A DNA stretch of 64,000 nucleotides, taken from Candidatus Saccharimonadota bacterium (GTDB lineage Bacteria; Patescibacteriota; Saccharimonadia; Saccharimonadales; JAXHNE01). Below the pieces are notes generated by a model. That model ran no database searches, was not told the DNA's origin, and worked only from the letters and a program-made list of their open reading frames with translations. The DNA lies in contig JAXHNE010000002.1 in the NCBI GenBank assembly GCA_034520885.1, positions 4,787 to 68,786 of the forward strand, in the 5' to 3' direction. A program made the position numbers and the translations under genes. Of this stretch, positions 14,332 through 62,566 are shown in pieces. Numbering within the stretch: position 1 is the first letter of the stretch; the number at the start of each line of letters is the position of its first letter.

Positions 14332-14520
14332 TTATTGCTCGATCTTCTTTATCTTGTTCTCGGCCGCCTTGAGCTTGGCTTCCAGCTGCTTAATCAATTC
14401 GGCGCCGCGTTCGTACTTTTTAAAAGCTTCGTCGATATCGATATCTTCCGACTCCAGCTCCGCAAACACCTCGTCCAGTTCTTCGCGTAGTTGCTGATAA
14501 GTTTTATCTGTCATGACCAT
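14332..14520 (-). CDS. xseB: exodeoxyribonuclease VII small subunit
   Basis: 62-aa helical protein; ...LREELDEVFAELESEDIDIDEAFKKYERGAELIKQL is the typical XseB pattern. Confidence 0.85.
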   Translation of the reverse strand: MVMTDKTYQQLREELDEVFAELESEDIDIDEAFKKYERGAELIKQLEAKLKAAENKIKKIEQ

Positions 14521-14935
14521 TAGTTTATAGGTTTTAGTGGTTAGATGCTAGAGATTAGGGGTTAGAGGTTAGTAGGTGGAAGGCGGTAAGCGACTTCGTC
14601 GCAATAGACGATAGATGAGAATTAATAGGTGATAGATGAGGGGTGATGGGTCGTATAGTTGGTAGGTGGCAGTTCTATAGTTCTGAGTAGTGAGTGGTGA
14701 GCTTCAGATAATACTAGAATTAATATCTAGTATTAATTCTAGTATTATTGAAACTTACCAGGCACGAACTGGAAGATAGCAGTTGGCAAGCGGGAAGCTT
14801 TTAGACCCGGAACCGCCGCCACCTCGTTTATCACCTATTAATTCTCATCTATCGTCCTATTGCCTACCGAAGTCGCCTACCTCTTATCTATCACCTATCG
14901 ACTATTATCTATTAACTCTCACCTATGCGGCTTTG
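14521..14935. mobile_element. foldback (MITE/IVS-like) element with heptamer-word arms, a long inverted repeat and a 42-bp AT palindrome
   Basis: The left half is C-poor and the right half is its G-poor complement. 14590-14634 is the inverted repeat of 14829-14876. The near-perfect palindrome is at 14708-14749. There is no ORF, and the element separates xseB from xseA. Confidence 0.7.
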
Positions 14936-17211: not shown

Positions 17212-18513
17212 ATGAAGTCACTGGCAATTTTAGGACGGCAACCGGCAATTGGCCTTGCGGAGCTGGAGTCGCTGTATGGCGCCGAAGCCGTACGACCCGT
17301 CGGCGAAAACGCCGTTACCGTTAACATCGCCCCCGATCAAATTGAGTTCAGGCGGCTGGGGGGCACGGTAAAGCTCGCCAAATTATTGACAGTTTTAGAT
17401 TTTACGAACTGGGATAAAATTGAAGATTTTCTGGCCGAGGAACTCCCCAAGCACACCTGTTGCATTACGGAAGGCAAACTGACGCTGGGGCTGAGCGCCT
17501 ACGGGTTCAAAATGAGTCCCAAAAAATTAAACGCCACTGCCCTGTCGCTGAAAAAGACCATCAAAGCCACCGACCGGCCGGTAAGAATTGTACCCAATAA
17601 GTCACTGGAGCTTTCCAGTGCACAGGTACTGCATAACAAATTATTTACCTCGCACAATTGGGAGCTCATTTTGCTGCGTGACGGCAACGAAACCTACCTG
17701 GCACAAACTACCAACGTGCAAGATATCGACGCTTACGCCGCCCGCGACCAAGCCCGGCCGGCCCGGGACGCAAAGGTCGGCATGCTCCCACCGAAATTAG
17801 CCCAAACGATAATTAATTTGGCTGTAGGCCAAATTAAAAAGATTGAAGATCGAGGACAGGAGAACGAAGAAAAAAACCCTCAATCCTCAATCCCCCATCC
17901 TCTATCAGTTTTTGATCCGTTTTGCGGAACGGGCGTGATACTACAAGAAGCGCTACTAATGGGATATCAAGTGACTGGAACGGATCTCGATGCACGTATG
18001 GTCGAATACGCCCGGCGCAACATGGACTGGCTCCAGCAAAAATGGAAGGTGGAAGGTGGAAGATGGAAGGTGGCAGGTGGCAAATGGAAGGTGGAAAATG
18101 GCGATGCAACGGATTACTCCTGGCCTGCGCTCTCAGCTTCCGGCTCTCGGCTCTCGGCTACCATCGCTTGCGAAACGTACTTGGGACGACCGTTTTCTTC
18201 CGCGCCGGATCACGCTACGCTGCAAAAAGTCATGCGTGACGTGGACACCATCCACGAAAAGTTTTTAAAAAACGTGGCCTCGCAGACGGAGTCGGGTTTT
18301 CGAATGTGCCTCGCCGTGCCGGCATGGGCACGCCACAGACAACAGACAACAGACAACAGACAACAGACTTTTAGGCATTTACCGGTGCTTGAAAAATTGA
18401 ACGAACTGGGGTATACTCGATTAAGTTTTGCTCACGCAAGAAACGAGGAGTTGATCTATCACCGAGAAGGTCAAATCGTCGGCCGTGAGCTCGTCGTTCT
18501 AAAAAGAACGTAA
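17212..18513 (+). CDS. RNA (guanine-N2-type, Trm11/UPF0020-like) methyltransferase carrying three in-frame low-complexity inserts
   Basis: N-terminal THUMP-like region and SAM motif I VFDPFCGTGVILQEALLMG. The inserts are at 17841-17906, 18038-18165 and 18335-18368. Confidence 0.7.
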   Translation: MKSLAILGRQPAIGLAELESLYGAEAVRPVGENAVTVNIAPDQIEFRRLGGTVKLAKLLTVLDFTNWDKIEDFLAEELPKHTCCITEGKLTLGLSAYGFKMSPKKLNATALSLKKTIKATDRPVRIVPNKSLELSSAQVLHNKLFTSHNWELILLRDGNETYLAQTTNVQDIDAYAARDQARPARDAKVGMLPPKLAQTIINLAVGQIKKIEDRGQENEEKNPQSSIPHPLSVFDPFCGTGVILQEALLMGYQVTGTDLDARMVEYARRNMDWLQQKWKVEGGRWKVAGGKWKVENGDATDYSWPALSASGSRLSATIACETYLGRPFSSAPDHATLQKVMRDVDTIHEKFLKNVASQTESGFRMCLAVPAWARHRQQTTDNRQQTFRHLPVLEKLNELGYTRLSFAHARNEELIYHREGQIVGRELVVLKRT

Positions 18514-21061: not shown

Positions 21062-21100
21062 GTCAACTTGCGTTCAGAACAAAGCAGGCTCGACGGTATG

Positions 21101-21600
21101 AGTACTAAACCTGGCGTCCTGACTTTGTGCCAGATTGAAATTTTATCCGCGAAGCGCCAAGGAAGCGTACTGAACGTACGGTGACTGCGACTCGTAAGGA
21201 TAAAATACTCAAGCTGGCCAAGAAACATGAATCGCGCGCCTAGTGCTCACACTTGAGTACAGTTTGGTCGTTCTTTTCGAGGAGCGGACCGAGTACTAAA
21301 CCTGGCGTCCTGACTTTGTGCCAGATTGAAATTTTATCCGCGAAGCGCCAAGGAAGCGTACTGAACGTACGGTGACTGCGACTCGTAAGGATAAAATATT
21401 CAAGCTGGCCAAGAAACATGAATCGCGCGCTTAGTGCTCACACTTGAGTACAGTTTGGTCGTTCTTTTCGAGGAGCGGACCGAGTACTAAACCTGGCGTA
21501 CTGACTTTGTGCCAGATTGAAATTTTATCCGCGAAGCGCCAAGGAGGCGTATTAATATACGGTGACTGCGACTCGTAAGGATAAAATATTCAAGCTGGCC
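21101..21600 (+). repeat. tandem repeat, 191-bp unit x about 2.6 (candidate multi-unit ncRNA)
   Basis: Units start at 21101, 21292 and 21483 and are nearly identical by eye. Each has several hairpins, including GCGTAC-TGAAC-GTACGGTGACTGCGA. Confidence 0.85.
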
Positions 21601-21605
21601 AAAGA

Positions 21606-24898: not shown

Positions 24899-25102
24899 GA
24901 TTCCAGGCTCTGAAGCAACCTGGACGAGCGTTGTGAGAATCAGGCGCCCTTGGGTGCGAGGACTGTTTGAGTAAAAATGGTGCCTGTCGGCACTATTTCT
25001 GTGAGTTCCAAGATCGTGGCTTTTCTAAAATGTTCACTATAGCTTCTTCACTGAAAACTGACAACGAACAACCGACAACTGTTATATAACTAGTTATATA
25101 AC
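24899..25102. repeat. solo copy of the 'unit-2' structured module, followed by GACAAC words and a 22-bp AT palindrome
   Basis: 24901-25008 is about 88% identical by eye to 60826-60932. GTTATATAACTAGTTATATAAC at 25081-25102 is a perfect palindrome. Confidence 0.7.
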
Positions 25103-25121
25103 ACTCAAACGATAAACTGGG

Positions 25122-29368: not shown

Positions 29369-29397
29369 ATTATACACTCGTGACACATGCACCACAA
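29369..29397 (-). promoter_or_regulatory. sigma70-type promoter of ftsE giving a leaderless or near-leaderless mRNA
   Basis: Minus-strand TTGTGG (29397-29392), a 17-nt spacer, then TATAAT (29374-29369) preceded by TG. Seven nucleotides later comes the ATG. Confidence 0.6.
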
Positions 29398-29460
29398 CGG
29401 GCAAAAAGGCAAACAAAGTTCGCTTTATTGCCGTTGCTCTTGGCTCAATAAGTAATTTTC
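29378..29460. repeat. 83-bp direct repeat, copy 1 (overlaps the ftsE promoter)
   Basis: Identical by eye to 29673-29755. Confidence 0.85.
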
Positions 29461-29672
29461 CTTTGTGAGTACTCCCTCACCGTATCTCGATACGCCTCAG
29501 TCCGTTCCTCAAGGAGAAATTACTTCTTGAGCTCAAGTGCATGCCTCACGAAACCCGTATATCCATATCCAATTTTCTTCTGCGGTTCTCCTTCACCGTA
29601 CGGACAAGTACGGCTCAGTCTGCGTCCTCAAAGATAAATTGAATCTGGGATCACAAATGTGAGAGTGGTTTA

Positions 29673-29755
29673 TCGTGACACATGCACCACAACGGGCAAA
29701 AAGGCAAACAAAGTTCGCTTTATTGCCGTTGCTCTTGGCTCAATAAGTAATTTTC
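29673..29755. repeat. 83-bp direct repeat, copy 2
   Basis: Identical by eye to 29378-29460, with a period of 295 bp. Confidence 0.85.
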
Positions 29756-29956
29756 GTTTGCGGTGTTCACTCACCGTACCGAAAGTACGCCTCGCTGAAA
29801 CTCCTCACGAGAAATACCAAATGAGCCTCAAGTGTGTGGCTCTGATTGCAAATCGATTATTTAAGGAGAAATTGCTTCTTGAGCTCAAGTGCAAGTCTTA
29901 GGTTACACGAATTTTTATAGCAATTATAACGGTTTTGGAAGAGCCGGATTTTTAAT

Positions 29957-37199: not shown

Positions 37200-37420
37200 T
37201 GCGTTCGAGTAGTGAGTTATGAGTGCTGAGTAGTGAGTTCTGTGTAAATGATAATAAAGACTTTTTGTGTTCCTTCGCGGAATTATCGCCTTCCTCTCTT
37301 TTTAAAACCGTGAATTACTAAAAACCAAAACTACACCCCTAAAAATTTAATTTAAATTTAATTTAAATTAAATTTCCTACCTCTGTTTTAACGCCTATTC
37401 TTTGCACATAATTATGCAAA
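37200..37420. repeat. foldback-family fragment with GAGTAGTGA words and a 33-bp AT-only near-palindrome
   Basis: GAGTAGTGAGTTATGAGTGCTGAGTAGTGAGTT at 37207-37243 (compare CTGAGTAGTGAGTGGTGAGC at 14684-14703). AAATTTAATTTAAATTTAATTTAAATTAAATTT at 37343-37375. A TTTGCA/TGCAAA hairpin at 37401-37420. Confidence 0.6.
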
Positions 37421-51542: not shown

Positions 51543-52268
51543 TTAAGTTCCGAAACGTCTCTTTCTCGTACCGTACCAGTCTAGCGCATCCTGGAAATCT
51601 TGTAACGTAAAATCCGGCCATAGTTTTTGCGCGAAATACAGTTCGCTATACGCCGCGCGTAAAAGCATGAACCCGCTGGTGCGTTGTTCCCCGGAGGTGC
51701 GAATCACTAAATCCACCGGTGGAATCATGTCGCCTTCATACAAAAGCGAGTGCAAAACGTCCTTGCTCATGTCCTCCGGAGCGATTCTCTTTTCCAAGGC
51801 TTTTTTGTAAACGTCAATCAACTCGTCTTCCCCGCCGTAGTTAAAACACAGCGCCAACGTGCCTTTGGTATTATCTTTGGTTTTTTCTTCCGTTCGGGCA
51901 ATGGCCCGGGCCACGTTTTTGGGGATGTCGGTTTTACGCCCCAAAATTACGATTTTGATTCCCGCTTTATGAAAAGTGTCCAGGTAGTTTTCCACCGCTT
52001 TGGTGACCAACTTCATTAAATACCCGACTTCTTCTTCGGTGCGTGACCAGTTTTCGCTGGAAAACACGAACGCCGAAAGGTACTTTACGCCGCGATCAAA
52101 CGCCCCGAGCGCAATCTCCTTAAAAACTTCCGCGCCTTCCCGGTGCCCTTCCATTGTCGGCAAGCCCTTGGCTTTCGCCCACCGCCGATTACCGTCTAGA
52201 ATTATTCCAACGTGAGTGGGCACGGATTGGGGATTGAGGATTGGGGATTGAGGAGATTCAGTTGGCAT
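51543..52268 (-). CDS. uppS: isoprenyl transferase (undecaprenyl diphosphate synthase)
   Basis: HVGIILDGNRRWAKAKG and RTSGEQRTSGFMLL. The start is either ATG 52268 or GTG 52223; the 15 codons between them are encoded by heptamer-word repeat. Confidence 0.9.
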   Translation of the reverse strand: MPTESPQSPILNPQSVPTHVGIILDGNRRWAKAKGLPTMEGHREGAEVFKEIALGAFDRGVKYLSAFVFSSENWSRTEEEVGYLMKLVTKAVENYLDTFHKAGIKIVILGRKTDIPKNVARAIARTEEKTKDNTKGTLALCFNYGGEDELIDVYKKALEKRIAPEDMSKDVLHSLLYEGDMIPPVDLVIRTSGEQRTSGFMLLRAAYSELYFAQKLWPDFTLQDFQDALDWYGTRKRRFGT

Positions 52269-52626
52269 TTTTACTCCGTAAAGAACCGTTGAGTGCATGA
52301 AGCATACGGGATATTATCGCACATTCTTTCAGTATTTCATCGGCCGGTAGTCGGTATACTTTTTGTGCAGTGATCACCTGTGTTTCGAGTTCGGCCAGCG
52401 AACCAAGAGCAATATCATTAAATCGGATCGTGTCTTTGTTCCCGAACCTTTTTTGACCTTCAGCGATATTTGACGCTACCGAGACTGCCGCCCTTTTCAT
52501 CTGATCGGCAAGAGCAAATTGTTCCGTCTTTGGTAGCTGTGTAATGAGTTCATAGTTTGTCACCGCGAGCTCGACCGCTCGCTGCCACACTTCCAGCTTT
52601 TGATATTCATGAGCACCCATACTCAA
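52258..52626 (-). CDS. four-helix-bundle protein (23S rRNA intervening-sequence protein / Avd-like family)
   Basis: YQKLEVWQRAVELAV...QMKRAAVSVASNIAEGQKRFGNKD...LGSLAELETQ is the family signature. The gene is flanked by inverted heptamer-word repeats. Confidence 0.85.
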   Translation of the reverse strand: MSMGAHEYQKLEVWQRAVELAVTNYELITQLPKTEQFALADQMKRAAVSVASNIAEGQKRFGNKDTIRFNDIALGSLAELETQVITAQKVYRLPADEILKECAIISRMLHALNGSLRSKNAN

Positions 52627-52673
52627 CCTTCCTCAATCTTCAGTCTTCCATCCCCTATCCGAAATAATGACGT

Positions 52674-53280: not shown

Positions 53281-54100
53281 GTTTGGACGGTAGAGGCGAG
53301 GAGTTGGTAGGTAGTAGATAGGAGATCGGGGATTGAGGATTGAGGATTGAGGAAAGAGTTCTGGGTTCATAGTTCATGGATAGGGTTTAGGGGCTAGGAG
53401 TTGGAAGATGGAAGTTGGAATTTGGTAGATAGAAGATGGTAGTTGGGAGTTAGTATTTCGTAGACAGTTGTCAGTTGTCCGTCTTCAGTAGTTGCGTTGT
53501 TCCAGGCTCTGGCTGAACTGATTGGACGATACGGGCAAAACCAGCAAACAAGCCTCAAGCTTGTTTTTTATGTAGTTACAACTGCCCTCGGCAGTTGTTC
53601 ACTTGGGCTCCAGGCTTCGAAAGCCTCCCCGGTAGTAGAACCAGTTCACTACGGGGCACGCCTGAGGAGCGAGTGTCAAAAGCACAATTTCTGCCGAGGA
53701 CTTGTTTGAGGGGTTGCCGGCTGAAGTATTTTGGCATACCCCGAGTTGTCCGAGCATTGTGCTTTTTGATAATGAGATCATAAAGAGGTTTTCGCGCCTG
53801 TGGCCTTTTTGGGGCACTTTTTGGCTACGCAAAAAGTGTCTGGGGGTGAAGCTGACCAGTCAGCTTCAATAATGACAGAACAAGATAGTGGGTCGGGAAA
53901 GCAAAAGCGAAGCTTTGCGCCGAAAAAACATACTTTGGGGCACTTTTTGGCCATGCAAAAAGTGCCTGACGGGAAGCTGACCAGACAGCTTCATATAATT
54001 CGTTACTGCCTACGATATTGATCGTATAGTTACAGTTGTCTAGCCCCTGTTGCAGAGCAATAATACTAGAATTAATACTAGTATTAATTCTAGTATTATT
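53281..54100. mobile_element. one-armed member of the foldback family: heptamer-word arm, roughly 590-bp structured non-coding core, perfect 42-bp AT palindrome
   Basis: Word arm at 53281-53470, hairpin modules at 53497-53995, palindrome at 54059-54100. The only ORFs here are short and inconsistent. Confidence 0.7.
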
Positions 54101-54120
54101 GAAGTTCCCCGCGAATGTTC

Positions 54121-54357
54121 TTACGCCCGGTCTCTCCCCCTGTCGCTAATGGCGGCACCGACCAAAAGCCCGAACCCGCCGGCTACCTCACCGTTGATAC
54201 TCTGTCCCGCGGCTTCGAAAAGTTCGGTTGAAACGCCGAAGACTCGCTCCGCAACAACCGCTACGCCCAACAACCCCAATCCGACCGCACCAGCCCATCT
54301 ACCAATGCGCTCCATCCTATTTACCGACCGGGGCGATTCAAAGTCTTCGAATTCCAT
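54121..54357 (-). CDS. small Gly/Ala-rich membrane protein
   Basis: 78-aa ORF with hydrophobic Gly-zipper-like segments, located 3 nt downstream of a similar small ORF. Confidence 0.45.
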   Translation of the reverse strand: MEFEDFESPRSVNRMERIGRWAGAVGLGLLGVAVVAERVFGVSTELFEAAGQSINGEVAGGFGLLVGAAISDRGRDRA

Positions 54358-54360
54358 TAC

Positions 54361-54540
54361 CTATGAGTCCAGTACTGATTTAACCGCGCCCACCGTGGCG
54401 ACCAGCGCGCCCGCAAGTGCCGCCGGGACCGAGTCAATATAAACGCCACCCATCAGTAAAGCGGCGCCTCCAAAAGCCATAAAGCGATCCATGGCCAGTT
54501 TTCGTTCTTGTGACTCCGCGTCTCGTTCCAAGTGATTCAT
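54361..54540 (-). CDS. small Gly/Ala-rich membrane protein (59 aa, below the ORF-track cutoff)
   Basis: Manual translation gives MNHLERDAESQERKLAMDRFMAFGGAALLMGGVYIDSVPAALAGALVATVGAVKSVLDS. Its layout matches the 78-aa neighbour. Confidence 0.4.
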   Translation of the reverse strand: MNHLERDAESQERKLAMDRFMAFGGAALLMGGVYIDSVPAALAGALVATVGAVKSVLDS

Positions 54541-54569
54541 CGGTTCGTTCCTTGCTTTAAATAAAAAGT

Positions 54570-55184
54570 CTATTCGCCAGTTTCGCCCAGCTCAAAGCGT
54601 GAAAAACGCCGTACCACGATGTTTTCACCCAAGCGGGCAATGTGTTCTTTGACGAACTTACCGACCGTTTTGTCCGGATCCTTGACGAACGATTGCTCCA
54701 TCAGGCAGCGCTCGGCAAAGTGCTTTTTTAACATTCCGTCGGTAATTTTATCAATCATGTCCTCCGTCCGCTGGCCAGTGGATGCCTCGCTCTTGGCTTT
54801 TTCGGCGAATTCTTGTTTTTTCTCTTCTTTTACGTCTTCGGGAATGGCTTCCATGTCCAGAAATTCCGGAGCGCTGGCGGCGATATGCATACACAAATCT
54901 TTCACCAAATCGGTAAAAATTTCGTTGCGGGCCACGAAGTCGGTTTCGCAGTTGACTTCCACGAGCACCCCGATACGACCGTCGTGGTCATAGGTGCTAA
55001 TCAGGCCGCTGCGGGCTTCGCGTTCACCGCGTTTTTCGGCTTTGGTCATACCTTTTTTGCGCATGGCTTCCAGCGCTTGGTCGTAGTCGCCACCCGCGTC
55101 TTCCAGCGCGGCTTTGGCGTCGGTTAATCCTACGCCGGTCAAGGCTTTCAATCGTTTTACGTCCTCAATATTTACTGCCATCAT
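54570..55184 (-). CDS. tsf: translation elongation factor Ts (short form)
   Basis: VKRLKALTGVGLTDAKAALEDAGGDYDQALEAMRKKG (UBA-like N-terminus) and VEVNCETDFVARN. Confidence 0.93.
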   Translation of the reverse strand: MMAVNIEDVKRLKALTGVGLTDAKAALEDAGGDYDQALEAMRKKGMTKAEKRGEREARSGLISTYDHDGRIGVLVEVNCETDFVARNEIFTDLVKDLCMHIAASAPEFLDMEAIPEDVKEEKKQEFAEKAKSEASTGQRTEDMIDKITDGMLKKHFAERCLMEQSFVKDPDKTVGKFVKEHIARLGENIVVRRFSRFELGETGE

Positions 55185-55411
55185 TCTTCTCCTTCATTGC
55201 TTGTTAGTTTGATGATCATCTTCGTTAATTCAGCTGCCGTTTGCGACAACTCTTCATCGCTCATTTTATCTTCTTCACCGAGAATTGAGCTCGCAAGGTT
55301 ATCGTGCCTAACCGTAATGTCCGCTAACTCATCCGGAGAGATAGTAGTTCCCTCTTCCTGGGCAAAGCGACTCAAATCCAGACCTTTACTTACTAACCGT
55401 TCGCTTAACAT
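55181..55411 (-). CDS. small acidic hypothetical protein between rpsB and tsf
   Basis: 76 aa from ATG 55411, preceded by GAAGGA. Its stop overlaps the tsf start (ATGA). The longer ORF-track form overlaps rpsB and is rejected. Confidence 0.5.
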   Translation of the reverse strand: MLSERLVSKGLDLSRFAQEEGTTISPDELADITVRHDNLASSILGEEDKMSDEELSQTAAELTKMIIKLTSNEGEE

Positions 55412-55430
55412 GATTATTCCTTCGTGTTGA

Positions 55431-56384
55431 TTAATCGGTTTTGGCTTGCGCGGGCTTCTTGGCCGCTGATGCGCTCGCCCCGTTTGATCCGCCGGTTGGC
55501 GGATTCTTTCCGGCGTCCTCTTTTTTGGCGGGCGCTGCTTTGGCTTTGGCCTTCCCTTTTTCAATCGCCGCCACCATGTAATCGGTTACCAGCTTAATGG
55601 CTTTAATGGCGTCATCGTTGCACGGAATCGGGTGATCAATGTCAGTCGGATCGGTGTTGGTGTCCACCAAGGCGACCACTGGAATATTCAGCCGGCGAGC
55701 TTCGCGTACGGCGTTGGCATCTTCGTTGATATCAATCACGAACATTGCGCCCGGCTTAGCGGTCATGTCTTTGATACCGCCGTAATTGTGGTTCATTTCG
55801 TCAATGTCTTCCTGGAACCGCTGCACCTCCAGCTTGTTGTACTTGGCCTCCAGCTGGCCGTTTTCCATGCGCTTTTCCAAATCTTTCAAGTGTTTGATGC
55901 GCGCGCCGATGGTGCTTTTATTGGTCAGCATGCCGCCGATCCAACGCTCTACCACGTAGGGCATGGCGGTTTGCTTGGCCGCGTCCTTAATAACGTCATA
56001 AGCTTGGCGCTTGGTGCCGACCATCAGTACCTGCTTGCCGTGAGCCGCGGTATTTTCCATGAACTTCATGGCGTCCTCAATCGCTTCCACCGTTTCGGTC
56101 AAGTCAATAATGTGCGTACCGCCACGTTTGCTGTGGATGTAGGGCGCCATTTTGGGGTGCCAGCGGCTGGTTTTATGGCCGAAATGCGCACCGGACTCCA
56201 TTAATTTTTTAATATCTACCCCGTCAGAAACGTTATTTGTCGGGGCTGATTTTTTGTTTTTAGTAGAAACGCTTTCACTGCGTGCGTTTCCTTCGGGGTC
56301 CACCCCGTCAGAAACGGTTGGTTTCTTCTGGGTAGCTTTTTTAGTTGCCCCGTTTTCTACGGGGTCGACGTCTGTCGTCGCCAT
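55431..56384 (-). CDS. rpsB: 30S ribosomal protein S2 with N- and C-terminal extensions
   Basis: LMESGAHFGHKTSRWHPKMAPYI, VLMVGTKRQA and IPVVALVDTNTDP. I prefer the start MATTDVDP at 56384. Confidence 0.93.
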   Translation of the reverse strand: MATTDVDPVENGATKKATQKKPTVSDGVDPEGNARSESVSTKNKKSAPTNNVSDGVDIKKLMESGAHFGHKTSRWHPKMAPYIHSKRGGTHIIDLTETVEAIEDAMKFMENTAAHGKQVLMVGTKRQAYDVIKDAAKQTAMPYVVERWIGGMLTNKSTIGARIKHLKDLEKRMENGQLEAKYNKLEVQRFQEDIDEMNHNYGGIKDMTAKPGAMFVIDINEDANAVREARRLNIPVVALVDTNTDPTDIDHPIPCNDDAIKAIKLVTDYMVAAIEKGKAKAKAAPAKKEDAGKNPPTGGSNGASASAAKKPAQAKTD

Positions 56385-56617
56385 GATGTATATCCTTTCA
56401 ACTTCGTCTTGGCGTTTGCCATAAAAGTTCCAAGCGGAAATCAATTATGGAGGATGTGCGTCCGGTGGTGATTTTTGTGCTTTTTATATCTTTGTTATGC
56501 AAAGACCACGAAAATCTACTACCGGGCCAAAACTGCTTAATTTATGACCACCGAATAGTAACAGGTTTGTTCACTTCGAGCAAGTAGTGGTATACTGCTG
56601 CTTTAAGAGGAGTAGCT

Positions 56618-56803
56618 ATGCGTAAAGGCAGAGAGGATATGGGTGGAGTAAGTTCTAACGAGGACTACACGCCTCCAGTTGGTCCAGACTCAAGCTCTCT
56701 ACCTCCCGCAGGGAATTTTCGAGATATAGACCCAGGGCTCGTGCCGCGAGTTACAGAGGATAGAGCACGTGACGTTGGAAGAATCGCCAACAAAAAGGAC
56801 TAA
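56618..56803 (+). CDS. possible small hypothetical protein
   Basis: 61-aa ORF with GAGGAG upstream and no other support. Confidence 0.3.
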   Translation: MRKGREDMGGVSSNEDYTPPVGPDSSSLPPAGNFRDIDPGLVPRVTEDRARDVGRIANKKD

Positions 56804-56925
56804 CGCGGTCTTGAATATTCCTTAACAGAGGTGTATACTTGCCCGAGTTACAAAAAACGTACGCTGACTGCAGCCAGGCTCACTGCTAACCAGCGCCAAT
56901 CATTAACGAGCTAGGATTTTGTTTT

Positions 56926-57276
56926 ATGAAAAAGGATATTCATCCCCAGAACTACCGCCCCGTGGTGTTTCAGGACTTAAACAACGACTGGGCAATTTTG
57001 ACCCGCTCCACCGCCGCGAGCGAGGAAACCATTAAGTGGGAGGACGGCAACGAATACCCGCTGGTAAAAGTACACATCTCCAGCAGTTCGCACCCCTTCT
57101 TCACCGGCCAGGAAAAACTGGTCGACATTGAAGGCCGAGTTGATAAGTTCAAGGCACGCCAAGATGCCGCCAAGTCCAAAGCCGACGCCATGAAAAAAGC
57201 CGCCGGCAAACAGCGCAAAAAACAACCCAAAGCCGACGAAACCCAGAAGATGGGTACGCTCAAGCGCAATAAGTAG
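56926..57276 (+). CDS. rpmE: 50S ribosomal protein L31 (type B, no Cys motif) with Lys-rich C-terminal extension
   Basis: [17 protein letters not shown]...[20 protein letters not shown]. Confidence 0.9.
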
Positions 57277-57312
57277 TTGACAGTAATCAGTTGACAGTAG
57301 ACAGTTGTTGAT

Positions 57313-57651
57313 ATGAGTTCGTACCGTGACCTAAAAGTCTGGAAAGATTCATTTGAGCTAACAAAATTAGTTTATAAAGCTACTGTCAAGTTACCTTCAA
57401 ATGAAAAGTTCGGTCTCGCTTCACAAATACAGCGTTGCGCAGTCTCGATTCCGTCAAATATTGCAGAAGGCCAACAACGAAAAGGTGCAAACGAATTTAA
57501 ACAGTTTCTTGGGATAGCCCGCGGTTCTGCGGCCGAACTTTCAACGCAACTTCTGCTTGCCCAGGACATCTATTCTATCGAACTGGAAATACTTGTAGAA
57601 AAAACTGAAGAAATTCAAAAAATGCTCTATAGCTTGCAGCAAAAACTGTAA
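57313..57651 (+). CDS. four-helix-bundle protein (23S rRNA intervening-sequence protein / Avd-like family)
   Basis: YRDLKVWKDSFELTKLVY...QIQRCAVSIPSNIAEGQQRKGANEF...GSAAELSTQ. The gene is flanked by GTTGACAGT / CTGTAACCT word repeats. Confidence 0.85.
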   Translation: MSSYRDLKVWKDSFELTKLVYKATVKLPSNEKFGLASQIQRCAVSIPSNIAEGQQRKGANEFKQFLGIARGSAAELSTQLLLAQDIYSIELEILVEKTEEIQKMLYSLQQKL

Positions 57652-57702
57652 ACTGTAACCTGTAACCTGTAAACTAACCATTGTTACCTGTAAACTAGCC
57701 AT

Positions 57703-58753
57703 ATGGATAAAAAGGAACAAGACCTACGCGACGAGCTCGCCGACATTATGAAACAGCTGGAAGATCCGGCTATTTTCAGCACGCCCGAGTATCCCAAAAT
57801 GCCGCCAAAAAAAGATAGAAGACATACTCGCGCTTTACGATGAACTGGCAAAGAGCAAAGAGCAAAGAGCAAAGAGCAAAGAGCTTCTGGACTCTGACGA
57901 TGAAGAATTGGCCGAACTCGCCAAAAGCGAGATAGAAGATCTGGATTTGAAAATTGAAACCCTCGAACTTAAACTAACGGAGGCTTTGACTCCAAAGGAT
58001 CCCAACGACGAAAAAGATGCCATTATAGAAATTCGCGCCGCGGCCGGTGGCGATGAAGCCGCCCTGTTCGCCGGCGAGCTATACCGCATGTACGCCCGTT
58101 GGTGCGAAACGCACGGCTACAAAATAGAACTTATCAACGAAAGTCCCGCGGAAGTCGGCGGGTTCAAAGAAATCAGCTTTTTGGTGCGCGGCGAAGACAC
58201 CTATAAATTCTTTAAGTTCGAAGGCGGCGTACACCGCGTTCAGCGCGTGCCGGAAACCGAAAGCCAAGGCCGCGTGCACACCAGCACCGTGACCGTGGCG
58301 GTCATGCCCGAAGCCGAAGAAACCGACATTGAAATCGACCAAAACGACCTTCGCGTAGATGTCTACCGAGCCGGCGGCCACGGCGGGCAATCCGTAAATA
58401 CTACGGACTCCGCCGTACGCATCACCCACGTGCCAACGGGGGTCGTTGTTACCAACCAGGACGAAAAATCGCAAATCAAAAACAAGCTCAAAGCCATGAA
58501 CGTATTACGTTCCCGCCTGCTCCAGCACAAAATTGACGAAGAAAACGCCAAGCTATCAGCTGAACGCAAAAAGCTGGTCGGCAGCGGCGACCGCAGCGAG
58601 AAAATCCGCACCTACAACTTCCCGCAGGACCGCATTACCGATCACCGTATTGGCTACTCCCGCAGCAACATCCCCGGAGCTTTGGACGGCCAAATAGACG
58701 ACCTCATAGAAGAACTCCACAAAGCCGAACACGAACTAATGAGTAACGAGTAA
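57703..58753 (+). CDS. prfA: peptide chain release factor 1, reading frame broken by one extra base at an A7 run (57807-57813)
   Basis: Frame 1 (57703-57813) encodes MDKKEQDLRDELADIMKQLEDPAIFSTPEYPKMPPKK. Frame 2 continues IEDILALYDEL...PKDPND...GGHGGQSVNTTDSAVRITH... to 58753. Frame 1 stops at 57841. Confidence 0.85.
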
Positions 58754-59558: not shown

Positions 59559-59637
59559 ATTTAATACTATGTTAATTTAGTATATTTGTACATAATTGTC
59601 AAGCATTTTTATGGGTTTTGTGGTATACTCACCTCTG

Positions 59638-60513
59638 ATGATTACCATTTCTAGGTGGATGGCTAAAAAAACTAAAGCGCTAGAGAGCGCCGGGATTTCC
59701 ACCGCTCGACTGGATTGTTTGGTGCTTTTAGAGGACGCGACCGGTAAAGATCGTTCATGGTTGCTGGCGCATCCGGAGCACGAGTTAGAAAGTTCAAAAG
59801 TTAAAAAGCTGAAAGAGCAAGTTCAGCGGCGGGCTAAGCATGAGCCGCTGGCCTATATTCGTGGGCGGAGTGCTTTTTATGGCCGGGAGTTTTTGGTGAA
59901 CGAACATACTTTGCAGCCCCGGCCGGAAACGGAAACGATGATCGACCACTTAAAATCACTGTACAAGGTTGAACCTTGTACAGAAGCTAAAAGCTCTGAG
60001 CGAAAAGCTCTGAGCATAGTAGATGTAGGGACTGGATCTGGTTGTATTGGGATTACCGCCAAGCTGGAGCTGCCGGATGCGGAAGTGTATGCCACGGACA
60101 TTTCCGAAGAATGCTTAAAAATAGCCCGAAAAAACGCCCGAAAACTAAAAGCCAATGTGGAGTTCCACAAAGCTAATCTCCTCCTCTCCCAAAAAAATAA
60201 TTCTCACTTTTTGAACGATCGTTCAAAAAGTGAGAATATTGTTTTGCTGGCTAATTTACCTTATGTTCCGGAAGGTTTCACTATAAACCAAGCCGCGATG
60301 TTCGAGCCGGACGTTGCCATATTCGGCGGTAAGGACGGATTGGATTACTACCGCGAGTTATTCGCCCAGATTGAAACGCTAAAAACTAAACCACATTTCA
60401 TTTTTACCGAAAGCCTACCAACGCAGCACAAAGACCTGACTGCAATCGCAGAAAAACACGGGTTTCGGCTTCATGAATGCCAGGATTTTATTCAAGTATT
60501 TATTAGGCGTTAG
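59638..60513 (+). CDS. prmC: release-factor glutamine methyltransferase PrmC/HemK
   Basis: EPLAYIRGRSAFYGREF, VDVGTGSGCIGI, and NLPYV in place of NPPY. ATG at 59638. The stop TAG (60511-60513) lies within the terminal motif of the downstream foldback element. Confidence 0.85.
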   Translation: MITISRWMAKKTKALESAGISTARLDCLVLLEDATGKDRSWLLAHPEHELESSKVKKLKEQVQRRAKHEPLAYIRGRSAFYGREFLVNEHTLQPRPETETMIDHLKSLYKVEPCTEAKSSERKALSIVDVGTGSGCIGITAKLELPDAEVYATDISEECLKIARKNARKLKANVEFHKANLLLSQKNNSHFLNDRSKSENIVLLANLPYVPEGFTINQAAMFEPDVAIFGGKDGLDYYRELFAQIETLKTKPHFIFTESLPTQHKDLTAIAEKHGFRLHECQDFIQVFIRR

Positions 60514-61393
60514 ATGCTAGACGTTAGAGGGTAGAGGGTAGAAGTTGGAAGTTGGAATTTGGAAGGTGGAAGATGGTAGGCGACTTCTTCGCAAAAGGTG
60601 AGAGTTAATAGATAAGGGTTAATAGATGATAGATGAAGGGTGGTAGATGGAAGATGGAAGATAGAAGATGGAAGATGGGGAAAATAATAAGTAAAACATA
60701 AATAGTAAGTTTCCGGGCTCTGCCTGAAACGATTGGACGGCGCCTCGGGTAAAAACCGACAAACAAGCTTCAAGCTTGTTTTTTATGTAGTTACAACTGC
60801 TCCGGAGCAGTTGTTCACTTGGCCTCCAGGCTCTGGAACAACCTGGACGGACGTTGTGGGAATCAGGCGCCCTTGGGTACGAGGACTGTCTGAGCAGAAA
60901 TGGTGCCTGGCGGCACCATTTCTGTGAGTTTCACAGTAAGCCTGATTGTGACAACGGCCGTAGCTGTTGTTTCAGCCGCCTGTCGGCTTTTGTTGCAATC
61001 TTTTGCCGACTCAAAAGATTGCTGACGGGGAGCTGGTCAGTCAGCTTCGCTATTGGCGGAACAAGATAGTGGGTCGGGAAAGCAAAAGCGAAGCTTTGCG
61101 CCGAAAAAACATACTTTGGGGCACTTTTTGGCCATGCAAAAAGTGCCTGGTGGTGAAGCTGACCAGACAGCTTCTATTAGTAGTTACCTACTACTTTGAT
61201 TGTATAGTTATGGCCGTATCGCCCTTGTTAAAACGTAATAATACTAGTATTAACTCTAGTATTAATACTAGTATTATTTTTACTAACTATGAGGTGCTAT
61301 CTTCCATATCCTAAATTCCATCTTCCAAGCACTATCTTCTAGCCCCTGTCTTCAATCTTCAATCCCCAATCTTCATTCCGTAACAACTATGAA
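60509..61393. mobile_element. complete foldback-family element: two inverted heptamer-word arms, structured core, 42-bp AT palindrome
   Basis: Left arm 60509-60700 (C-poor), core 60712-61176, palindrome 61237-61278, right arm 61285-61393 (G-poor, the reverse complement of arm-type sequence also seen at 53300-53440). It fills the whole prmC-htrA convergent spacer. Confidence 0.75.
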
Positions 61394-62566
61394 CTAACTA
61401 CTGGGTGCAGCTTCCAAAGTGGCGGTCAGATCGATTTCCTCGCCGCCGCGAATTACTTTCATAGTGATTTCGTCGCCTACTTGATTGCGTCCGACCAACG
61501 TTACCAATGAGTTTTCTTCGTTCACCGGCTCCCCGTTGACTTCCACGATAATGTCTTCTTCTTGTAGTCCCGCCTGCTCGGCCGGGCTGTCCGCGGCAAT
61601 GCCCGGTTGGCCGGTGGAGCCGGTAGTGATATACGCCCCGGACTCTTGTTCTATATCAAGCTCCCGGGCGATTTCCGCGTTCAGTTGAATATAGCGAACG
61701 CCGAGATATGCCCGCTGAAACTCGCCCGTTTCCAGCACACTGTTTATTAATCCTTTTATGTCGTCGATCGGGATGGCAAAGCCGATGTTTTCCGCCCCGC
61801 CACTGGCCACCGCGGTGTTCACGCCGATGACCTTGCCTTCGCCGTTAACAAGCGGGCCGCCGGAATTTCCCTGATTAATCGCCGCGTCCGTTTGAAACAG
61901 GTTTTGCAGCGTGTCCGACCCCGATTGGTCGCGCGCGGTAATACTGCGGCCGAAGCCGGAAATAATCCCGCTGGTCACGGTGTTTTGGAATTGCCCGAGC
62001 GCGTTGCCGATAGCTATCACGCGCTCCCCGACCTTCGTATCACTGGAATTTCCCAGAGTAACCGGGGTGAGATCATTTCCTTCGTCATCATTGATCTTCA
62101 AAAAGGCAATGTCCAAAGGATCACTGCTGGCCGTCCGCCCTAAGACTTCCACGTTCTCCAGTTCCGTACCGTCGGAGAGCGTGACGCTCACTTCACTCGC
62201 CCCTTCGGGCACCACGTGCCGGTTGGTCAGCACGATACCGTCCCGGCTCAAGATAAAGCCGGTGCCCGCACTCTCCTGGGTGAACGGCTCTGACGGTCCG
62301 AAAAAGGAACGCGCGCTGGCTTCACTTTCCACGTTCACCGACACCACCGAAGCGCCGACGTCTTCGGCGATTCCGATGATGAGTTCGCTTTGCGCATCAA
62401 TAGTTCGCTGCTGAGCTATATTGATATCCTCCTGGTGTTGTTGGCTCTGCGCACCGAACCAACCCCCCAGAAAACCGGCCGATATGCTGGCCAACGCGCA
62501 CAGCACCACGAGCGCCAGCTTGCTTCGTTTCGGTGAATTATTGGATTTGGCCGTCTGCTTGGCCAT
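61394..62566 (-). CDS. htrA: HtrA/DegP-family serine protease with PDZ domain
   Basis: GTGFILSRDGIVLTNRHVV and GNSGGPLVN, followed by a PDZ domain; N-terminal TM. Confidence 0.92.
   Translation of the reverse strand: MAKQTAKSNNSPKRSKLALVVLCALASISAGFLGGWFGAQSQQHQEDINIAQQRTIDAQSELIIGIAEDVGASVVSVNVESEASARSFFGPSEPFTQESAGTGFILSRDGIVLTNRHVVPEGASEVSVTLSDGTELENVEVLGRTASSDPLDIAFLKINDDEGNDLTPVTLGNSSDTKVGERVIAIGNALGQFQNTVTSGIISGFGRSITARDQSGSDTLQNLFQTDAAINQGNSGGPLVNGEGKVIGVNTAVASGGAENIGFAIPIDDIKGLINSVLETGEFQRAYLGVRYIQLNAEIARELDIEQESGAYITTGSTGQPGIAADSPAEQAGLQEEDIIVEVNGEPVNEENSLVTLVGRNQVGDEITMKVIRGGEEIDLTATLEAAPSS

Follow-up and report, generated by a model that had tools for sequence, protein, structure and literature searches.

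The convergent genes prmC and htrA, in a 64-kb window of contig JAXHNE010000002.1 from a Candidatus Saccharibacteria metagenome-assembled genome (MAG), are separated by a spacer of 880 nt (60514-61393) that is filled by a structured foldback element, which measures 885 nt when the prmC stop codon is included. The window is the whole stretch of 64,000 nt that was analyzed, and all positions refer to it unless another sequence is named; the source genome is covered by this window and by two short Logan contigs from the same sample, L058 and L064. The product of prmC (MDZ7785629) carries the Pfam domains PrmC_N and methyltransferase, and htrA encodes an HtrA-type protease with the Pfam domains Trypsin_2 and PDZ. 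The spacer is added sequence, the parts of which are common to other spacers of the window, and paired arrays of heptamers also surround genes of the family PF05635, both here and in other Saccharibacteria. Tentatively, we regard the spacer as one member of a lineage-specific family of composite foldback cassettes; it resembles an intervening sequence (IVS) devoid of an open reading frame (ORF), would have passed from spacer to spacer by copying of DNA and has arms that would pair in RNA. Here we present the features of the element, its sibling copies and relatives, together with the alternatives to this explanation. A summary of the features is shown in Table 1.

Table 1. Features of the prmC-htrA element, its flanking genes, its sibling copies and the two PF05635 cassettes of the window
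Feature	Position	Strand or location	Description
prmC	59596-60513	+	stop codon TAG 60511-60513
Element	60509-61393	prmC-htrA spacer	885 nt including the prmC stop codon
Left arm	60509-60712	element	degenerate heptamer arrays rich in G and poor in C; 8 C among 204 nt
Core	60713-61236	element	524 bp, hairpin-rich, modules A-C
Core module A	60711-60832	element	hairpins 60761-60781 (followed by a T run) and 60793-60814
Core module B	60825-60933	element	13-bp perfect hairpin 60895-60924
Core module C	60977-61236	element	hairpins 60995-61022 and 61120-61147; long-range 18-bp stem 61031-61048 / 61155-61172
Palindrome	61237-61278	element	42 bp; three tandem 12-bp palindromic units AATnCTAGnATT; 12-nt period
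Right arm	61285-61393	element, up to the htrA stop codon	C-rich, G-poor heptamer complement; 9 G in 109 nt
htrA	61394-62566	-	stop codon 61394-61396
xse copy	14519-14930	between xseB and xseA	412 bp; simple foldback with palindrome 14708-14749 at its apex
frr copy	53281-54101	tsf/frr spacer, upstream of frr	821 bp; left arm, core and palindrome, without right arm
PF05635 cassette 1	52215-52665	-	gene 52258-52626; arrays GGATTGA / TCAATCC; Pfam E = 3e-31
PF05635 cassette 2	57273-57702	+	gene 57313-57651 between rpmE and prfA; Pfam E = 1e-35

An 885-bp foldback occupying the prmC-htrA spacer had been proposed in a first-pass annotation of the sequence, and its sequence features were found where they had been placed. 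Tandem Repeats Finder (TRF) detected period-7 arrays on both sides, with the units TTAGACG, GAAGTTG, ATAGATG and TGGAAGA in the left arm and TCTTCAA in the right arm, such that the arms are heptamer arrays, as had been held, and not classical terminal inverted repeats (TIRs). The left arm begins with GTTAGATGCTAGA (60509-60521), which includes the prmC stop codon and recurs identically at 14540-14552, again as described before, and it contains the small hairpin GCGACTTCTTCGC. Regarding the earlier view that the element provides this stop codon, the stop does lie inside a motif in common with the xse copy; its provision by the element is not supported, and PrmC has a C-terminus of normal length (DFIQVF plus three residues). 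The core is hairpin-rich, as stated, and longer than the approximately 465 bp first given for it. Within the core, hairpin 60761-60781 of module A yields a terminator-like match on both strands, and module B sits inside a 36-nt imperfect inverted repeat (60833-60868 / 60940-60975). The palindrome, which had likewise been recognized, has two 17-nt arms that are 100% complementary. An imperfect 16-nt direct repeat (13 of 16 positions matching) exactly brackets the right arm (61282-61297 / 61393-61408, 111 nt apart); either copy could encode the end of htrA with its stop codon, and the repeat may be a duplication from addition of the arm, or chance.

Folding of the 885 nt yielded -332 kcal/mol on the plus strand (z = -16 versus shuffled sequences) and -296 kcal/mol on the minus strand (z = -12). 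Both the minimum free energy (MFE) and the centroid folds join 60512-60580 to about 61300-61370, so that complementary termini close the element. The arm complementarity that had been proposed is real though modest in self-comparison: of the best complementary segments, one has 29 nt (86%) and the other 73 nt (70%), with an alignment score of 55 versus 28 +/- 5 in shuffles, and the duplex of the element's own arms amounts to -76.7 kcal/mol versus -59.2 +/- 4.5 kcal/mol in shuffles. The duplex of the right arm with the left arm of the frr copy is far stronger (-107 versus -65 +/- 5 kcal/mol), which agrees with the common word order already noted for these two arms, and the arms of the prmC-htrA copy derive from two different arm types. 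Perfect hairpins with a stem of at least 9 bp number 28 in the window versus 0-3 in shuffles, and about 16 of these 28 matches, some of them overlapping matches on palindromes, fall in the prmC-htrA, frr and xse spacers. In all three copies the plus strand folds better and contains 3-8 times more G-U pairs, which is no proof of a plus-strand RNA because it is partly due to richness in G+T.

Self-comparison of the window yielded three copies of 412, 821 and 885 bp, each with a different architecture. The xse copy is 71% identical to its own reverse complement over 312 nt, folds as RNA at -182 kcal/mol (z = -11) and forms an arm duplex of -158 kcal/mol versus -87 +/- 7 kcal/mol in shuffles; its right arm extends into the final xseA codons and it has almost no core. 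The core of the frr copy is composed of a module set that differs from, but overlaps, that of the prmC-htrA core. Compared with the left arm of the xse copy (14534-14645), the left arm of the prmC-htrA copy is 72% identical along 119 nt, and compared with that of the frr copy it is 82% identical along 56 nt; a further left-arm copy is located at the end of contig L064, which starts inside this heptamer array. Module A is 83% identical to 53500-53616 of the frr copy, with pairing in a hairpin stem kept despite a change from T-A to C-G between the copies. Module C showed an identity of 82% to 53795-54057 of the frr copy, in a match that extends through the palindrome (60977-61278 / 53795-54100); both stem sides of the hairpin at 60995 are changed relative to the frr counterpart, and a block of 91 nt is 100% identical (61059-61149 = 53878-53968), which points to recent copying or gene conversion. 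Module B is 89% identical to 24902-25010, where it occurs as the single core module of a fourth spacer, without arms or palindrome. This fourth spacer additionally holds a CTAG-centered palindrome, TGTTATATAACTAGTTATATAACA, at 25080-25103.

The ends of the copies vary. The motif GTTAGATGCTAGA is found at only two of the three left ends, and about 18 nt (TTAGTTyATAGkTkTTA) occur both at the left end of the xse copy and, as reverse complement, at the right end of the prmC copy. The right ends are unlike one another, and arms are cut short at gene borders. Because modules are shared piecemeal among spacers, the family is a mosaic and not a uniform unit. The earlier description as a non-autonomous mobile or foldback element therefore stands as regards a non-coding, multi-copy foldback and is not supported as regards one complete mobile unit, since the architectures differ and modules occur independently. 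No target-site duplication was found around the whole element, the flanks TTATTAGGC and CTAACTACT being without a direct repeat, and no transposase gene was found adjacent to any copy, not all ORFs of the window having been scanned. Contig L058 independently reproduces 54074-57877 (3.8 kb) at 99.9% identity, and its two breaks fall precisely in the palindrome of the frr copy and in a heptamer array; arms and palindrome are thus places where independent short-read contigs end.

The gene order prmC-htrA-x-lytR is retained in four relatives, one of which (L057) additionally retains frr-tsf-rpsB-rpmE-prfA upstream. In these relatives the spacer between prmC and htrA measures -4 nt (L052), -4 nt (L055), 9 nt (L057) and 158 nt (L056), and nothing like the element of the window was found inside any of the four, so that the junction is empty in them. 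With spacers of -4 to 158 nt in relatives of the same gene order, the element is added sequence at the prmC/htrA junction, and judging from these spacers it was inserted where the stop codons of prmC and htrA originally overlapped. Likewise, the tsf-frr spacer comprises 66 nt in L057 versus 1332 nt in the window. PrmC of the window is only 56-60% identical to that of these four relatives; the empty sites are no proof of a recent insertion, because PrmC identity to the nearest genomes reaches only 58-60%. In a further locus, L054, an additional gene of 612 aa is located between prmC and htrA. Within prmC of the window there are two in-frame perfect palindromes (59959-59983 and 60200-60237, with stems of 11 bp and 17 bp), which fall in loops of variable length among homologs and resemble the in-frame palindromic insertions known from Rickettsia.

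Of all parts of the element, only the palindrome is conserved outside the source genome. Within the window its copies at 14708-14749 and 54058-54101 are 90-97% identical. Among 185,579 genomes scanned, three further Saccharibacteria MAGs contain the palindrome (90-97% identity), six copies being present in one of them, and the flanks are unrelated; in MAG CAZMXN01 the palindrome alone matches the window. In each of the three MAGs one copy is located 4-27 nt upstream of a gene of 57-59 aa, and considering all five loci in which such a gene follows (L064 of the same genome, L008, L010, L012 and L037) the distance to the gene, which encodes an AbrB-like protein, is 4-36 nt. In the source genome the stretch 6831-7084 of L064 holds this AbrB/MazE-like gene, and the triple palindrome stands upstream of the start codon at a distance of 36 nt; the gene has the locus-tag prefix U5L95, and its product, MDZ7785940, is 311 accession numbers away from MDZ7785629. 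On L064 the gene is followed by an ORF of 86 aa and then by an apparent RelE/ParE-type toxin gene. On metagenome contigs, the gene of a diverged AbrB-like protein (47% identity) adjoins a triple repeat that has diverged correspondingly. Conservation of the palindrome exceeds that of the adjoining coding sequence: 38 nt are the same in three genomes, the AbrB-like proteins of which are 73-80% identical.

All four AbrB-like proteins match PF04014 (MazE/AbrB/SpoVT) at E values of up to 0.01, the best score being 23.3 bits at a cut-off of 24.7, and many of their homologs have a precomputed PF04014 match. The family comprises 492 clusters across the Patescibacteria. A sequence search of the PDB with the AbrB-like protein gave no match, and no toxin partner is conserved beside the gene in the loci compared. 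Hexamers resembling those of sigma-70 promoters are present on both strands of the palindrome (TTAATA/TTAACT - 16 nt - TATTAT), and promoter matches were not above shuffles (2 found versus 1.5 +/- 1.3). Judged by position and conservation, the palindrome is probably the promoter-operator of the AbrB/MazE-like gene and possibly a bidirectional promoter, and we infer that the three palindromes of the window are additional predicted binding sites for the AbrB-like protein. The first-pass annotation had missed this promoter-operator-like character, as well as the wide spread of heptamer arrays and the paired arrays around PF05635 genes.

TRF detected 17 clusters of period-7 arrays in the 64 kb, five of them in the prmC-htrA spacer (four in the left arm and one in the right arm). 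Period-7 arrays of many different units are scattered over spacers and the inside of ORFs in the window, and they are common in other Saccharibacteria loci as well. The ORF at 17212-18513 (methyltransferase-like) contains four such arrays at 17878-18368, namely CCTCAAT, TGGAAGG (7.7 copies), GCTCTCG and ACAGACA (4.9 copies), and prfA contains GCAAAGA (5.3 copies, 57848-57884), which encodes AKSKEQRAKSKE. The prfA reading frame of the window is shifted at about 57801, where L058 has five more nucleotides (CGCCC) and an intact frame; an error of assembly or variation within the population probably explains the shift. G-rich/C-rich foldbacks built from other words occur in L052 (2765-2990) and L001 (1640-1925). 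The former includes (AGGGTTT)n, which is identical to the plant telomere repeat, and pairs at -56.6 kcal/mol versus -42.3 +/- 3.4 kcal/mol in shuffles, while pairing of a second candidate in L052 (3465-3665) was not above shuffles. A rule by which the purine-rich arm comes first fits six independent intergenic foldbacks; it was not relied on because of a counter-example inside prmC of L057.

Paired arrays also bracket the two PF05635 genes of the window, both of which are located outside any rRNA and for both of which the MFE and the centroid folds contain a closing stem of arrays. The arms of cassette 1 form a duplex of -53 kcal/mol versus -32 +/- 4 kcal/mol in shuffles and contain 7-mers common to the frr and prmC arms. 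Cassette 2 is bracketed by ACAG-type arrays upstream and CTGT-type arrays downstream. The order rpmE-IVP-prfA, in which IVP denotes the PF05635 gene, is found together with paired arrays in the orthologous loci L059, L060 and L063, the proteins of which are 67-73% identical; the arrays of these loci pair at -23 to -40 kcal/mol versus -8 to -12 kcal/mol in shuffles, with ACAG upstream and CTGT downstream in every case. That paired arrays are retained at a protein identity of only about 70% suggests constraint on pairing. The gene is missing from L052 and L057 and hence is not universal.

The element is non-coding and is not a known RNA family. Rfam gave no match at gathering scores in the whole window and only noise at E values of up to 10 in the spacer, ARAGORN found no tRNA, and no rRNA is present in the window. 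A degraded gene, which the first-pass annotation had listed as a refuting outcome, was rejected: none of the five spacer ORFs has a Pfam family, and the ORF of 115 aa, compared by HMMER with 1.84 billion proteins, has no real homolog, the only match being a short repeated stretch (E = 1.6e-5). An origin from a phage or plasmid was rejected as well, only chance matches of 34-41 nt to the palindrome having been found, as was a replication origin, given a spacer without DnaA boxes and a window without any switch in GC skew. None of the other Saccharibacteria loci retrieved contains the core modules. Literature searches, in agreement with the first-pass annotation, yielded no description of such a family, including in Saccharibacteria or bacteria of the candidate phyla radiation (CPR), or of the architecture of the element; its arms belong to the poorly understood heptanucleotide repeats (PMC4679880), here in the form of complementary pairs.

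Under the explanation of the spacer as an IVS-like composite foldback cassette, which we prefer tentatively, outer heptamer arms, mosaic hairpin modules and a copied promoter-operator of an AbrB/MazE-like gene located elsewhere in the genome would have been brought together and spread by recombination or copying between arrays and palindromes at the DNA level, not by a dedicated transposase. Transcription of either convergent gene into the spacer would allow the arms to pair as a long, imperfect double-stranded RNA stem, and by analogy with the IVSs of 23S rRNA this stem would close a multi-hairpin domain. Such a stem might serve to end, stabilize or insulate the two transcripts, RNase III would be likely to cut it, and the palindrome might recruit the AbrB-like protein. 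As the two strands of a foldback read alike, a single element could be of use to both genes.

Several observations weigh against this explanation. The own arms of the element pair modestly (z of about -4), and their G-rich/C-rich composition supplies part of this. Arm pairing in RNA and cleavage by RNase III are predictions, and a search of the 64-kb window for an RNase III signature found none. In many Saccharibacteria the PF05635 gene between rpmE and prfA is stable and syntenic, which makes a mobile cassette less plausible. Covariation of the arrays flanking this PF05635 gene was considered and rejected, cross-genome arm pairs being about as stable as own pairs, which indicates conservation and not covariation. 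Finally, the palindrome is present in other genomes without any foldback, so that its presence in the element may be incidental. A more general version of the preferred explanation, in which heptamer-array stems bracket cassettes in operons and spacers of the Saccharibacteria, and perhaps of other CPR bacteria, as IVSs outside rRNA, the PF05635 protein, a four-helix bundle first found in 23S rRNA IVSs, binds the arrays or promotes their spread, and the prmC-htrA element is a non-autonomous member that captured an AbrB-like operator, is distinctly unlikely.

Regarding the alternatives, we consider it unlikely that the element is a non-autonomous DNA transposon (a miniature inverted-repeat transposable element (MITE) or foldback) moved as a unit by a transposase that is encoded elsewhere and recognizes its arms or ends. 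Several related copies at intergenic sites, empty junctions in relatives, inverted arms, the occurrence of GTTAGATGCTAGA at two left ends and of about 18 nt in common between the xse left end and the inverted prmC right end are what this would produce, and breaks of short-read contigs in arms and palindrome are as expected of dispersed repeats; the imperfect 16-nt direct repeat around the right arm would also fit. However, the whole element has no target-site duplication, the copies differ in length and composition, with modules occurring alone and one copy lacking an arm, and the arms of the prmC-htrA copy stem from two arm types and are only about 70% complementary. Moreover, no transposase gene was seen near any copy, the paired arrays that flank the PF05635 gene are old, syntenic features and not recent insertions, and at the PrmC identities given above the empty sites do not establish a recent insertion.

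Just as unlikely, in our assessment, is neutral or selfish DNA devoid of any role in RNA or regulation, in which replication slippage would have generated the arrays in spacers of this lineage, inverted duplication by template switching the arms and hairpins, and gene conversion the similarity between copies, the structure being merely tolerated. This accounts well for the scatter of heptamer arrays of many units over spacers and ORFs of the window and of other Saccharibacteria, for the in-frame palindromes inside prmC, for copies that are mosaic and truncated at genes, and for the identical 91-nt block. It does not account for paired arrays kept at the same place around PF05635 genes the proteins of which are only about 70% identical, for a palindrome more conserved than the neighboring coding sequence, or for the stem-preserving changes in core hairpins between copies. 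In a reduced genome, the loss of 880 bases without use would also be expected; gaps of more than 60 nt between ORFs make up about 11% of the window according to our own selection of ORFs, a few of which are spurious.

A stand-alone structured non-coding RNA, or antisense RNAs, with the palindrome as a bidirectional promoter and the core as the functional RNA, is very unlikely. Hexamers of the sigma-70 type on both strands of the palindrome, its promoter position at the AbrB-like gene, a very structured core with 91 nt identical in two copies, and the better folding of the plus strand with its excess of G-U pairs in all three copies are consistent with such an RNA, but Rfam yielded no match, the core modules are missing from the other Saccharibacteria loci fetched, the xse copy has almost no core, the composition of the core varies between copies, and the promoter matches are no commoner than in shuffles. 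It is extremely improbable that the spacer is a decayed protein-coding gene, an origin of replication or an artefact of assembly, given that the ORFs of 64-115 aa that can be drawn across it have no Pfam family, that the longest of them has no more than the one short repeated match, that DnaA boxes and a skew switch are absent, that arms of about 70% complementarity are unlike chimeric inverted joins, and that the gene order across the spacer agrees with the relatives and the neighboring 3.8 kb are reproduced by the Logan assembly, even though the source is a MAG with at least one probable 5-nt error (in prfA) in the window and a 612-aa gene occupies the same junction in L054.

Compared with known systems, the element comes closest to an IVS in its proposed action and to a MITE or a bacterial interspersed mosaic element (BIME) in its appearance, and it departs from each in defining features. 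Known IVSs are stem-closed selfish elements that are cut halfway along their stem by RNase III, and some of them carry an ORF of the PF05635 family (PMC4990558), which is likewise present in insertions within CPR rRNA (PMC11270868). As in the 23S rRNA IVSs of Leptospira, Coxiella, Salmonella and others (roughly 100-760 nt), a selfish-looking insert is closed by complementary ends, and the two PF05635 genes of the window are closed by paired arms like those of the element. In contrast to IVSs, the element lies between protein-coding genes and not in rRNA helices 25 or 45; the prmC-htrA copy has no ORF, PF05635 ORFs being restricted to the sibling cassettes at 52215-52665 and 57273-57702; and the arms are degenerate heptamer arrays of 100-200 nt whereas the IVS stem comprises about 28 bp. 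Processing by RNase III, which is reported to have been assayed in vitro for the IVS of Coxiella, is here a proposal made by analogy.

With bacterial MITEs (Correia/NEMIS, ERIC, RUP and BOX elements) and eukaryotic Foldback transposons the element has in common that it is non-coding, multi-copy and intergenic and folds back on itself. BOX elements are modular, and the Foldback elements of Drosophila have long inverted arms of short tandem repeats. Unlike these, the element does not appear to have defined TIRs, it has no target-site duplication or uniform copy, its arms are of low complexity, its modules occur independently, and no partner transposase was seen adjacent to any copy. The repetitive extragenic palindromic (REP) sequences and BIMEs of enterobacteria and pseudomonads resemble the element in part, in that they consist of clusters of short palindromic hairpins that occur in differing orders among spacers; they are located between convergent or co-directional genes and act as stabilizers of mRNA 3' ends and as protein-binding sites. 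The hairpin sequences of the element are presumably unrelated to REP sequences, its modules are present in only 2-3 copies each in 64 kb, and REP elements are not known to have anything like the long heptamer arms or the triple palindrome. A REP-associated tyrosine transposase (RAYT) was not seen, no systematic search for one having been made.

The heptamer arrays recall the short tandemly repeated repetitive (STRR) sequences and the TAACTGA repeats, since the element likewise carries tandem 7-nt arrays in an intergenic position, and (TAAACTG/TAACCTG)n upstream of prfA resembles TAACTGA. To our knowledge, the units of the element are not among the STRR units of cyanobacteria. TAACTGA heptanucleotide repeats are found in Beggiatoaceae, Cyanobacteria and Bacteroidetes in 2-8 copies, in intergenic regions and sometimes in ORFs; they often abut start codons without a Shine-Dalgarno sequence and are direct, with a single indirect case (PMC4679880). 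None of the units found in the element (TGGAAGA, GAAGTTG, TTAGACG, TCTTCAA and others) equals TAACTGA, and the many units found here occur as complementary pairs able to form a stem around cargo. Autoregulated promoters of AbrB/MazE/SpoVT genes (PF04014) resemble the palindrome in that a small protein is encoded directly downstream of a better-conserved, multi-unit palindromic site; the differences are a PF04014 score below the cut-off, the lack of a conserved toxin partner and the additional predicted sites inside foldback repeats.

Other repeats of the window are located apart from these copies. At 21100-21602 a spacer contains a 191-bp tandem repeat (2.6 copies, 97% identity), a 37-nt piece of which also occurs at 5944-5980 of L064. 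A 122-nt direct repeat (91%; 29378-29498 / 29673-29793) and a second, short repeat (29511-29541 / 29863-29893) are located in and beside a spacer, and a palindrome composed only of A and T with a 15-bp stem is present at 37343-37375.

Because the genomes of Saccharibacteria are small and tightly packed, a recurring structured insert of 880 bp in operons of essential genes calls for an explanation. The element links heptanucleotide repeats, the PF05635 protein and an AbrB-like protein widespread in Patescibacteria, each of which is without an established function. The repeats break short-read assemblies and push heptamer-encoded residues into protein termini, and thereby affect the annotation of CPR MAGs. 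If the stems are processed, they would represent a kind of operon punctuation in CPR bacteria of which we found no description in the literature.

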